Source: Escherichia coli (GTDB lineage: Bacteria > Pseudomonadota > Gammaproteobacteria > Enterobacterales > Enterobacteriaceae). Taken from it: DNA of 64,000 nt. The stretch's first letter is position 1. The number at the start of each line of letters is the position of its first letter. A program made the position numbers and the translations under genes. Positions 11,819 to 15,952 of the stretch are shown in pieces. The notes under the pieces are model-generated. The model saw nothing but the letters and a program-made list of their open reading frames with translations. It was not told the origin of the DNA and did no database searches. The DNA is taken from the NCBI RefSeq assembly GCF_016026235.1, contig NZ_CP065613.1, one strand, 5' to 3'.

Positions 11819-11908
11819 GTCACTCACTCTTTTTTGAATATCCATCCCTGGGGGGCTTTTATCGTCTTTGCTTTACCGCCAGGGCGTCGGCCCCAAGTAT
11901 AAAGCAGA

Positions 11909-11944
11909 TAAAAACAAAAACACCATTGCGCAGGCAATGGTGTT
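11909..11944 (-). terminator. Rho-independent terminator downstream of sra
   Basis: On the minus strand: stem AACACCATTGC, loop CTGC, stem GCAATGGTGTT, followed by TTTGTTTTT. Confidence 0.55.
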
Positions 11945-11974
11945 TAATCGTCATTGAGGACTGATGGTTATGAA

Positions 11975-12112
11975 TTACTTTTCAGCGGGGCGTTTTCTGC
12001 CGGTTGGGTTATTTACTACGCTGGATTTGTCACCTTCGGTAACTATTTTGCGCTGGTTAGAAATTTTATGGTCCAGTCCAAGAATATGACGTGCCTGACG
12101 GTTCGATTTCAT
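11975..12112 (-). CDS. sra: Stationary-phase-induced ribosome-associated protein (45 aa)
   Basis: Minus-strand translation [45 protein letters not shown]. Absent from the ORF track because it is under 60 aa. Confidence 0.85.
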
Positions 12113-12213
12113 TTTAACTCCTCAATCCTGTAGCTAGTTTTAAGGACAACATCGCCGTAGCGAAGAAACACGTGCTAAACCCCTAAATTAGGTTGCCGAT
12201 CAAGCATAGCACC

Positions 12214-12429
12214 TTAAAGCGTAGGGTGCTGGCCACTGACCACATAATTGATCGTTTGCTGGTAGATATCACTGAGGATGTCGTTATCAGAAGCTTCCAC
12301 CCATTTGGTCAGCTCCATGAGAATGTCATCTTCAGTGACAACACCGTGCTGTGCCCGAAGGCCTTGCTCAATGGCATTAACCAGAGCGGGTTCTGCTGTT
12401 GAATTTTCTGCCTGATAATAAGTAAACAT
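12214..12429 (-). CDS. bdm: Biofilm-dependent modulation protein
   Basis: Start at MFTYYQAENSTAEPALVNAIEQG (71 aa) inside the listed 92-aa ORF. Confidence 0.8.
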   Translation of the reverse strand: MFTYYQAENSTAEPALVNAIEQGLRAQHGVVTEDDILMELTKWVEASDNDILSDIYQQTINYVVSGQHPTL

Positions 12430-12645
12430 AGTGATTCTCCGTGTCTGTGTATTTATGGTGTCTGCTACGGATCGCAGATTTATAAAGCACATTCAGCATG
12501 GCAAATATTTGCCGCTTCGTTGTTAAGATTAGTCCTAGTTGATGATTTTTATATTTTAACTCCATGATATTCATAGGGATTGTGATTGGTATGATCCGAT
12601 TAATATTGATACAATATCTTTTGGGTTATATATTCCCGGTAATCT

Positions 12646-12681
12646 ATTGTGGGAATTTAATTTATTGTGGGAATTTAATTT
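12646..12681. repeat. Perfect tandem duplication, 2 x 18 bp (ATTGTGGGAATTTAATTT)
   Basis: Units at 12646-12663 and 12664-12681 are identical; lies in the bdm-osmC intergenic region about 110 bp upstream of osmC. Confidence 0.9.
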
Positions 12682-12792
12682 AAGTACAGAAGTAATATTT
12701 CTGCCGGATTTTTATTCGGAATATCCTGCTTATCCTCGTGCTGTTTCTCACGTAGTCTATAATTTCCTTTTTAAGCCCACAGGAGAGCAACA

Positions 12793-13224
12793 ATGACAAT
12801 CCATAAGAAAGGTCAGGCACACTGGGAAGGCGATATCAAACGCGGGAAGGGAACAGTATCCACCGAGAGTGGCGTGCTGAACCAACAGCCGTATGGATTT
12901 AACACGCGTTTTGAAGGCGAAAAAGGAACTAACCCTGAAGAACTGATTGGCGCAGCGCATGCCGCATGTTTCTCAATGGCGCTTTCATTAATGCTGGGGG
13001 AAGCGGGATTTACGCCAACATCGATTGATACCACCGCCGATGTGTCGCTGGATAAAGTGGATGCCGGTTTTGCGATTACGAAAATCGCACTGAAGAGTGA
13101 AGTTGCGGTGCCGGGTATTGATGCCTCTACCTTTGACGGCATCATCCAGAAAGCAAAAGCAGGATGCCCGGTTTCTCAGGTACTGAAAGCGGAAATTACG
13201 CTTGATTACCAGTTGAAATCGTAA
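12793..13224 (+). CDS. osmC: Osmotically inducible peroxiredoxin OsmC
   Basis: 143-aa ORF with OsmC/Ohr fold sequence and conserved Cys pair. Confidence 0.92.
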   Translation: MTIHKKGQAHWEGDIKRGKGTVSTESGVLNQQPYGFNTRFEGEKGTNPEELIGAAHAACFSMALSLMLGEAGFTPTSIDTTADVSLDKVDAGFAITKIALKSEVAVPGIDASTFDGIIQKAKAGCPVSQVLKAEITLDYQLKS

Positions 13225-13279: not shown

Positions 13280-14206
13280 CTACAGCGCCCGCCAGCACCG
13301 GAGCTCACGTCCGTCCTCCCTTATTGTTAATGATTGCCGGACTTCACATCCGTGGGTTGCCAGAGGGCAACGTTCGTAGAAAAAACAGCCTTGCGGCAAC
13401 GTGCGGTTTCCTGGCAGTTCCGTTTTACGTAATGCCCATTCTTCCTCCAGCGGTTTATCAATGGCGGGGAGGGAATCCAGCAATAATCGGGTGTATGGAT
13501 GTGCCGGAGCCGTTAGCACCTGTTGCGCGTCGCCCAGTTCTACAATCTGCCCGAGATACATCACCGCCACCCGATCGCTCATATGACGTATCACCGAGAC
13601 ATTGTGTGAAATCAGCACATAAGTCAGCCCGTGATTTTCCTGTAGCGTTACCAGTAAATTGAGGATCTGCGCCTGCACGGAGATATCCAGCGCCGAGGTT
13701 GGCTCATCAAGCACAATCACGTCAGGCTGCGAAGAGAGTGCTCTGGCAATGGCGATGCGTTGCCGCTGCCCGCCGGAGAACGCATGAGGCAGGCGGTCGA
13801 GATACTCCGGACGAATACCCACCTGCACAGCCAGCTCCTCTGCCAACGCTCACCGCTGTTGTTCACTACTACGCTTAGCTATCCAGAGCGGTTCTGTGAT
13901 GATGCGCCACACCGGTAAGCGCGGATTAAGCGAAGAGAGCGGGTCCTGAAACACCATCTGCATAATGCGTTGTGAGCCTGAACGGATGTACTGCCCGTGG
14001 CTCGGTTGCAGCATGCCCATTAAAAGCTGTGCGAGGGTGCTTTTGCCGCAGCCTGACTCGCCGACGATCCCTAAGGTTTCACCACGGCGGATCTGTAAAT
14101 CAATACCATTAATGGCATGAACATGTTCCGTAGTTTTACCAAGCCAGTTTTTACGGGCCGGGAAATTGATATGGACGTCGCGTAACGTTAATAACGTGTC
14201 AGACAC
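13280..14206 (-). pseudogene. ddpF: Dipeptide ABC transporter ATPase DdpF interrupted by an in-frame TGA (minus-strand codon 119, plus coordinates 13850-13852)
   Basis: The 118-aa ORF (13850-14206, Walker A GESGCGKST) and the 188-aa ORF (13280-13846, LSGGQ and Walker B) are in the same frame, reading ...[18 protein letters not shown].... Total 309 codons equals the 308-aa DdpF I recall plus stop. Confidence 0.7.
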
Positions 14207-15167
14207 TTATGACCTCCTGCTGCGGATACCAACAGGCGCAGCGCTGGTTGTTGTCACCACACGCTGTCAGCGCCGGGACGTTTTCACACTGTGCACCTGC
14301 CGCATAGCAACGATCGCGAAAAGCGCAGCCGTCAGGCAAATGGGTGAGGTTTGGTACCGTCCCTGGAATGGCGGGTAATGGCTGGCGTGGTACTCCATGT
14401 TCTGGTGCGCATTGCAGCAAACCAATGGTATACGGATGCCGGGGATGATGGATAACGTCTGCCGTCACGCCGCTTTCAATTACGCTTCCGGCATACATCA
14501 CGTAAACGCTATCGCACAGTTGCGACACCACGGCCATATCATGGCTGATGAACAGTACCGCAGTTCCACTGGCGCGGGCTTTATGTTTAAGCAAACGCAG
14601 TACCTGCAACTGTACCGTGACGTCCAGCGCCGTAGTCGGTTCGTCGGCAATAATCAATTGCGGCTCGCAGGAAAATGCCAGCGCAATCATAACCCGCTGG
14701 CGCATACCACCTGAAAGCTCAAACGGATAGCGCGACATAACTTCCACGGCATCCGGGATTTGCATCTCTTCCAGCAGGGCAATCGCTTTAGCTCTGGCTT
14801 CCCGACGACTTATTGGTTGATGATGGCGGATTACGTCCATCATCTGAAGACCTATTCGACGTGTCGGATTAAGAGCGGTCATCGGTTCCTGAAAGATCAT
14901 CGCCACTCGTGCGCCGCGCCACTGACGAAGCTGTTTTTCCCGAGCGTTAAGAACATCTTCTCCCAGCAGTGAAATCTGCCCCCGATGTACGCAATAACTG
15001 CCCGTCGGTAGCAGACGCATAATCAGCATTGCGGTGACTGATTTACCTGAGCCGGATTCTCCCACCAGACCGACAATTTCACTGCGGTTAATCTGCAAGG
15101 ACACATTGTTGAGCGCGTGAACATCACCGTTAAAACCGGGGAAACTCAAATGCAGCTGTTGAATGTT
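14199..15167 (-). CDS. ddpD: Dipeptide ABC transporter ATPase DdpD, 5'-truncated at a deletion junction (native start and RBS missing)
   Basis: ABC ATPase (GESGSGKS, LSGGMRQR). The frame upstream of ...NIQQLHLSFPGF is closed by TAA at 15171-15173 and abuts the dosC fragment. Confidence 0.7.
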   Translation of the reverse strand, partial: NIQQLHLSFPGFNGDVHALNNVSLQINRSEIVGLVGESGSGKSVTAMLIMRLLPTGSYCVHRGQISLLGEDVLNAREKQLRQWRGARVAMIFQEPMTALNPTRRIGLQMMDVIRHHQPISRREARAKAIALLEEMQIPDAVEVMSRYPFELSGGMRQRVMIALAFSCEPQLIIADEPTTALDVTVQLQVLRLLKHKARASGTAVLFISHDMAVVSQLCDSVYVMYAGSVIESGVTADVIHHPRHPYTIGLLQCAPEHGVPRQPLPAIPGTVPNLTHLPDGCAFRDRCYAAGAQCENVPALTACGDNNQRCACWYPQQEVISV

Positions 15168-15952
15168 CTGTTATTCAAATTCCTGGTGTTACGCATGGTT
15201 TGATTGAAAATACCGTCGAAATCCTGAATCAGACGAGAGATATGGCCCACTTCAGCAATGCCGCTGAAATAATGTCGACCTTTATGGTTAAACCACAGGC
15301 CAAAATCAGCCTGGCTTAAAGGCAAACTACTGCCTAAATCAGAATCCAGCAGGATTTTATAGATGATATCTATTTCCCATGAAAGTATTGAGGCTATTTG
15401 CCGTTCTTTTTCTTCTTCGGCGTTTTCCAGTAACGAGAAGATACGATAGTTTTCATCTTCTTTTGAGGCACTACTGTCACTAAAGGTAAACGCGCGGGTC
15501 ATCACTTCCATAGCGATATCAATACTGTTAATCGAGAAATGGTAGACCTGAAGTTTTTCTGCGGCAGAATAATCCGAAGAGAAGATTACCGGATAGAGGA
15601 TCTTTTTCAGCACCCGAAACCCCATCTCGACAATTTCTACCGGAATTCCTATGCGGGCATGCACTTCCGCGACGGTATGCTGGATTTGTATTAGCCTTTC
15701 GACATCGTCAACCTGGGCAGAAAGCACGTTAATAATCCAGCGTTCCATCGCACTCTTCAACTGCCGCTCAACTTGTTCATTACTCAAGAATTCTTCGGCA
15801 TGCGGGTCGATGCGGACAATTCGATAAAACTCAATACTCAGATAATGAGCATGCGCAACGGCAATTTCCGCGGCTTTAGCACGAATGGGCGGATCTGCCT
15901 GTTCGACAAGCCCGGTCCACTCATCTTTCATTCTTTTAAAATACATCTCCAT
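15146..15952 (-). pseudogene. dosC: Diguanylate cyclase DosC, 3'-truncated: globin sensor and middle domain only, GGDEF domain absent
   Basis: MEMYFKRMKDEWTGLVEQ... matches DosC through ...NTRNLNNR, then reads TFNSCI-stop (268 aa versus about 460 expected). Confidence 0.7.

Follow-up and report, generated by a model that had tools for sequence, protein, structure and literature searches.

Sra of E. coli, also named protein D, is a basic protein of 45 aa that was first taken for ribosomal protein S22, the product of rpsV. According to a later paper that cites Izutsu et al. (2001, PMC99491), Sra binds the 30S subunit tightly, its copy number goes up in stationary phase, and its expression is tied to RpoS (sigma-S) and (p)ppGpp. 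By the later paper's account, the copy number also goes up in persisters. Published counts are ~640 copies per cell during growth and ~5,850 once the cells have spent one day in stationary phase. The protein is sub-stoichiometric, and it is no longer classed among the core ribosomal proteins. It is found on ribosomes early in stationary phase and is lost together with RMF. The gene is co-transcribed from the promoter of the upstream gene bdm and also has its own promoter. CsrA represses sra indirectly, cadaverine stimulates its translation, and deletion of sra causes little phenotype. Papers call the function of Sra 'unknown' or 'obscure' and describe a distribution of ribosome states that Sra leaves unaltered; reviews count it among the hibernation factors. 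A preprint places the origin of Sra within the Enterobacteriaceae and describes it as evolving fast.

Among the known E. coli factors, RMF resembles Sra in being small, basic and induced in stationary phase, in binding the 30S subunit, and in moving on and off the ribosomes in parallel with Sra. The two are not homologous, as Sra matched PF08136 only, and they differ in what they do: RMF has a defined role in the formation of 100S dimers, whereas Sra leaves the proportions of the ribosome states as they are, and no binding site is known for it. The bS22 of mycobacterial and Bacteroidetes ribosomes is presumably unrelated to Sra, with only the number 'S22' and the small size in common.

The window analyzed here is a stretch of 64,000 nucleotides that corresponds to the E. 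coli chromosomal segment narU-yddG-fdnGHI-yddM-adhP-maeA-sra-bdm-osmC-ddp...gadBC...hipBA. Between bdm and maeA, we found on the minus strand a reading frame with an ATG start at 12112, 45 codons and a TAA stop at 11977-11975, preceded by a strong ribosome binding site. The coding features are as follows.

11975..12112, minus strand: coding sequence of sra (rpsV), from the ORF list, PF08136, NF007473, identity to WP_000841554.1 and substitutions at codon position 3.
12118..12123, minus strand: Shine-Dalgarno sequence GAGGAG, 5 nt upstream of the sra ATG, read from the sequence.
12214..12429, minus strand: bdm, 71 codons plus stop, from a full-length match to Pfam PF10684 (BDM, 175 bits) and the RefSeq annotation.

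The translated frame matched the Pfam family PF08136 (SRA_like, 'Ribosome hibernation factor SRA') with an E value of 2.6e-31 and 108.2 bits against a cut-off of 25, with residues 1-44 covering profile positions 1-46 of 46, and it scored 74.5 bits against a cut-off of 35 for the NCBIfam equivalog NF007473. The family-membership cut-offs of both collections were thus exceeded over the full length. All 45 residues were identical to RefSeq WP_000841554.1, annotated as sra, an accession shared by strains MLI023K1, ATCC 25922 and O157:H7 EDL933, and the exact 45-aa sequence is filed as Sra in a large protein collection, where it occurs on at least 1000 contigs. The predicted product is small and strongly basic (5.1 kDa, pI 11.0, 11 Lys and Arg against 4 Asp and Glu). 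Compared to the described E. coli Sra, the protein of the window is the same in sequence, and length, Shine-Dalgarno sequence, terminator and neighbors (bdm upstream, maeA downstream, osmC divergent) are also shared, with no difference at the protein level.

Hence, the feature is almost certainly the chromosomal E. coli sra gene (old name rpsV, 'ribosomal protein S22') with its ribosome binding site and a Rho-independent terminator, located between bdm and maeA. Nothing counts against the identity of the gene, and the mechanism is the weak part of the explanation. The gene, its signals and its location are already known and are the same as annotated in thousands of genomes. The first-pass annotation had assigned sra to this 45-codon minus-strand frame, and the coordinates (ATG at 12112 to the stop at 11975) together with PF08136, NF007473 and WP_000841554.1 bear it out. 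It had named a search with the 45-aa translation as the way to check the assignment, and since this search did return Sra/RpsV (PF08136 at 108.2 bits, and NF007473), the assignment was not refuted. It had also remarked that the gene was missing from the ORF list, which is explained by the lower limit of 60 aa on that list, under which a protein of 45 aa falls. The sra case can be read as a quality check: an ORF cut-off of 60 aa hides real, well-studied small genes, and such genes are recognizable from the sequence. The same list placed the start of bdm at the ATG at 12492 (92 aa), while the RefSeq start is at 12429 (71 aa), and the start of maeA at the ATG at 11845 (574 aa), while the RefSeq start is at 11818 (565 aa).

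Short open frames are frequent in this region, with 40 ORFs of at least 20 aa overlapping the 2.2 kb around sra, and a 45-codon frame in the spacer between bdm and maeA might accordingly be open by chance, with no protein made from it. Against this stand the family matches far above the curated cut-offs, the strong Shine-Dalgarno sequence at ideal spacing, and published mass-spectrometric data in which Sra was detected and quantified on ribosomes. The pattern of substitutions argues in the same direction. E. coli strains that differ by 1-2% over a 351-nt region around sra encode an identical Sra protein, and their 2-3 differences within the sra frame are all synonymous and at the third position. 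Between genera, the differences at codon positions 1, 2 and 3 numbered 3, 5 and 20 in comparison with Salmonella, and 2, 3 and 20 in comparison with Citrobacter. Among 17 family members, M1, S3, R5, Q6, A7, L11, G12, S18, N19, K22 and R39 were invariant and the GRKR motif nearly so, and this invariance of the N-terminus across genera adds to the third-position excess. As judged from these substitutions, the test for an excess of third-position changes was positive and the sra frame is under protein-level selection; the probability of a chance frame is negligible.

A second open frame, of 59 aa with a TTG start, lies on the opposite strand (11954..12133, plus strand) and overlaps sra. Being longer than sra and uninterrupted over the entire sra frame, it could in principle be the real gene of the stretch. 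It starts, however, with TTG, and it is unannotated in all four RefSeq records with feature tables that cover this stretch. Since its codon position 1 coincides with position 3 of sra, where most of the substitutions fall, the antisense frame would be under no protein-level constraint. The 59-aa frame at 11954-12133 was rejected because the substitutions pile up at its first codon position, and the idea that it is the gene instead of sra can be given practically no credence.

The sra region is nearly universal in the species. A 901-nt probe around sra found matches in 5412 of 5426 complete E. coli genomes, the top matches being 99.9% identical and annotated as bdm, sra and maeA, and 14 of the 5426 genomes had no match to it. 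A 351-nt probe of the sra region was 100% identical in MLI023K1 and 97.7-99.7% identical in the other sampled strains. We also observed that 4 of the 5428 matching places of the probe over 11700-12600 of the window were on plasmid-typed records, and that some genomes had two places. In strain FDAARGOS_943, an IS1A element lies inside the same 901-nt region.

A related arrangement was seen in E. coli NR341 (locus L004, 2288-2985), where an IS1 transposase gene is located between osmC and maeA, replacing bdm-sra. Of the 351-nt probe, no more than the final 43 nt are left in this strain, which represents a natural deletion of bdm-sra. The replacement of bdm-sra by IS1 in NR341, together with the 14 of 5426 genomes without a match, indicates that sra is dispensable.

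Outside E. coli, the order osmC (divergent), bdm, sra and maeA was found in Salmonella and Intestinirhabdus. The order in Citrobacter and E. albertii was osmC, sra and maeA, with bdm not called, and in a distant metagenomic relative sra was again upstream of a malic-enzyme gene. The orthologs of Salmonella, Citrobacter, Intestinirhabdus and E. albertii share with the window the nearly invariant N-terminal 20 residues, the GRKR motif, the synteny and the sequence of the hairpin described below, whereas their overall identity to the Sra of the window is 64-89% and their C-terminal tails are 1-3 residues longer. The named homologs in 66 clusters all belonged to Escherichia, Shigella, Citrobacter, Salmonella or Intestinirhabdus, i.e., to the Enterobacteriaceae only, and this distribution fits the dating of the origin of Sra in the preprint.

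Downstream of sra, the minus strand carries the following two elements.

11918..11945, minus strand: stem-loop of a predicted intrinsic terminator, with a 12-bp stem and a 4-nt loop, from a terminator scan, folding and conservation.
11910..11917, minus strand: T-run TTGTTTTT, read from the sequence and continuous with three T of the 3' arm of the hairpin.

The hairpin, AAACACCATTGC-CTGC-GCAATGGTGTTT, occupies 11945..11918 on the minus strand and lies 30 nt past the sra stop. The terminator scan reported 12 pairs, 5 of them G-C, and this was the sole strong terminator-like site in 11700-12800. The folding energy of a 71-nt stretch containing the hairpin was -19.3 kcal/mol, compared to -8.8 ± 2.5 kcal/mol for shuffled sequences (z = -4.3), and 0 of 200 shuffles were as good; the hairpin by itself gave -16.2 kcal/mol. 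A stable stem-loop followed by a T-run, 3' of the stop and on the coding strand, which is the pattern of an intrinsic terminator, was therefore found. The first-pass annotation had described an 11-bp stem and a T-run here. The hairpin and the T-run were supported by the scan, the folding and the conservation, and only the length had to be corrected, to 12 bp, the twelfth pair being the closing C-G pair. The span that it had given for the whole feature, 11909-12112, runs exactly from the start codon of sra to the end of the T-run.

The sra hairpin was found in all the orthologous loci of Escherichia, Salmonella, Citrobacter, Intestinirhabdus and the metagenomic relative, with the arm sequences nearly unchanged, and the TTTTTG motif behind the stem was retained in most orthologs. 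One U-A pair is changed to C-G in Intestinirhabdus and the metagenomic relative, which is a compensatory change, and one pair is turned into a U-G wobble in Citrobacter. In an alignment of 6 taxa, 97% of the cells were paired in the proposed register, compared to 33-69% in slid registers. The observed covariation score was reached by 29 of 500 shuffles, with 1 pair changed on both sides; the covariation support is thin, since 8 of the 12 hairpin pairs never vary. In the ortholog L010, which is still more distant, the same place is taken by an unrelated hairpin, rich in G+C, with a T-run, suggesting that the function as a terminator, and not the sequence, is what is kept. From structure and conservation, transcription of sra is predicted to end at the hairpin and T-run 30 nt past the stop.

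The degree of conservation raises another reading, in which the hairpin, in place of or in addition to terminating transcription, is the 3' end of a stable regulatory RNA derived from the 3' UTR, or an element acting on maeA. Both arms are almost invariant across genera, in contrast to the 30-nt spacer before them and the synonymous sites of sra, both of which have diverged, and the conservation of the arms exceeds what the structure alone requires. In addition, the rpsV mRNA of Salmonella was pulled down with the sRNA PinT, so that the transcript does take part in sRNA networks. However, the hairpin is built like a textbook intrinsic terminator, the unrelated hairpin and T-run in L010 occupy the same place, and no Rfam family was above threshold in a search over 11500-12900 at E <= 1. 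The matches of this search (a Streptococcus sRNA and miRNA families) were all at chance level and far under their gathering scores, the best of them reaching 24.5 bits where 48 is the gathering score. We consider this reading very unlikely and retain the plain terminator. A more specific form of it rests on the invariance of the hairpin sequence from Escherichia to Intestinirhabdus, which the preceding spacer does not share, and for this reason a second role at the RNA level may be entertained: the sra terminator hairpin might double as a stable sRNA derived from the 3' UTR, or as a docking site for a protein or sRNA that ties the expression of sra or maeA into a stationary-phase network. This would be a long shot.

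On the upstream side, bdm and sra are separated by a spacer of 101 nt. On the basis of the literature, sra would be transcribed both from the bdm promoter and from its own promoter in this spacer. A scan with the sigma-70 consensus found no minus-strand promoter in the 101 nt. One element was noted by its fit to another pattern.

12202..12210, minus strand: candidate -10 element of sra's own promoter, GCTATGCTT, proposed from its fit to KCTAYRCTT.

We take KCTAYRCTT to be the sigma-S -10 pattern. Matches to it in the window numbered 3, compared to 3.06 expected, and the match is not significant alone. The core TGCTAnGCT was conserved in the alignment, also at loci without bdm. Since this sigma-S-type pattern is conserved but not significant alone, the promoter of sra is listed as a candidate only. 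Another block conserved in the alignment, TTGTCCTTAAAACTAGCAACAGGATTGAGGAG, extends into the Shine-Dalgarno sequence of sra, at which the block CAGGATT[G/A]AGGAG showed little or no variation among Escherichia, Salmonella, Citrobacter, Intestinirhabdus and the metagenomic relative. Elsewhere in the spacer, in the leader or promoter region of sra at about 12150-12200 on the minus strand, the block GGCAACC(N4-8)AGGGGTT was conserved across genera, also at loci without bdm; it may form a small hairpin or bind a protein.

A search of the PDB with the 45-aa Sra sequence returned no chain, even at E <= 1, and the placement of Sra on the ribosome is therefore not derivable from solved structures. An AlphaFold model built on an alignment of 17 sequences was of low confidence (mean pLDDT 67, pTM 0.28). 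Its only moderately confident part was an N-terminal helix at residues 4-11 with a pLDDT of about 84, and the rest was low. In the mechanism we propose, Sra would be an accessory hibernation-type factor, touching the 16S rRNA of idle 30S/70S particles through its invariant N-terminal segment (11 residues, with the predicted helix 4-11) and through the GRKR motif. Such a factor would come and go together with RMF. Sra is dispensable for growth. We infer that an accessory hibernation-type factor contacting 16S rRNA is what Sra most likely is, insofar as the conserved residues and the predicted helix can be relied upon. Sra remains of biological interest because its site on the ribosome and its function are unsolved, and the window adds nothing there.

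Several further observations were made elsewhere in the window. The most notable of these side observations is a precise deletion junction at about 15146-15166 (ORFs 15952..15146 and 15149..14199, minus strand), at which the first ~268 codons of dosC are fused to a 5'-truncated ddpD. About 7.35 kb of MLI023K1 is missing at this junction, comprising the 3' end of dosC, dosP, ddpX, ddpA, ddpB, ddpC and the 5' end of ddpD. None of the 5426 complete E. coli genomes covered 80% or more of a 301-nt probe across the junction, whose two halves matched separately, and no IS element was found at the junction. At 36402-37675, an IS3-family element with IS2-like ORFs of the InsC/InsD type (136 and 301 aa) adjoins a ydeQ-like fimbrial gene; this element is absent from the otherwise collinear segment of MLI023K1. 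The region 39016-42428 encodes a full-length fimbrial usher of 883 aa (ydeT-like) and a chaperone ORF of 239 aa, whereas the corresponding part of MLI023K1 contains just a truncated ydeT pseudogene; the ydeT region is about 2.9 kb in the window, compared to about 0.6 kb in MLI023K1. Finally, across the 64 kb, SECIS_3 alone among the Rfam families exceeded its threshold, at 4310-4368 on the plus strand (84.3 bits, gathering score 63), a site that falls in the region collinear with fdnG, the selenoprotein gene for the alpha subunit of formate dehydrogenase-N.
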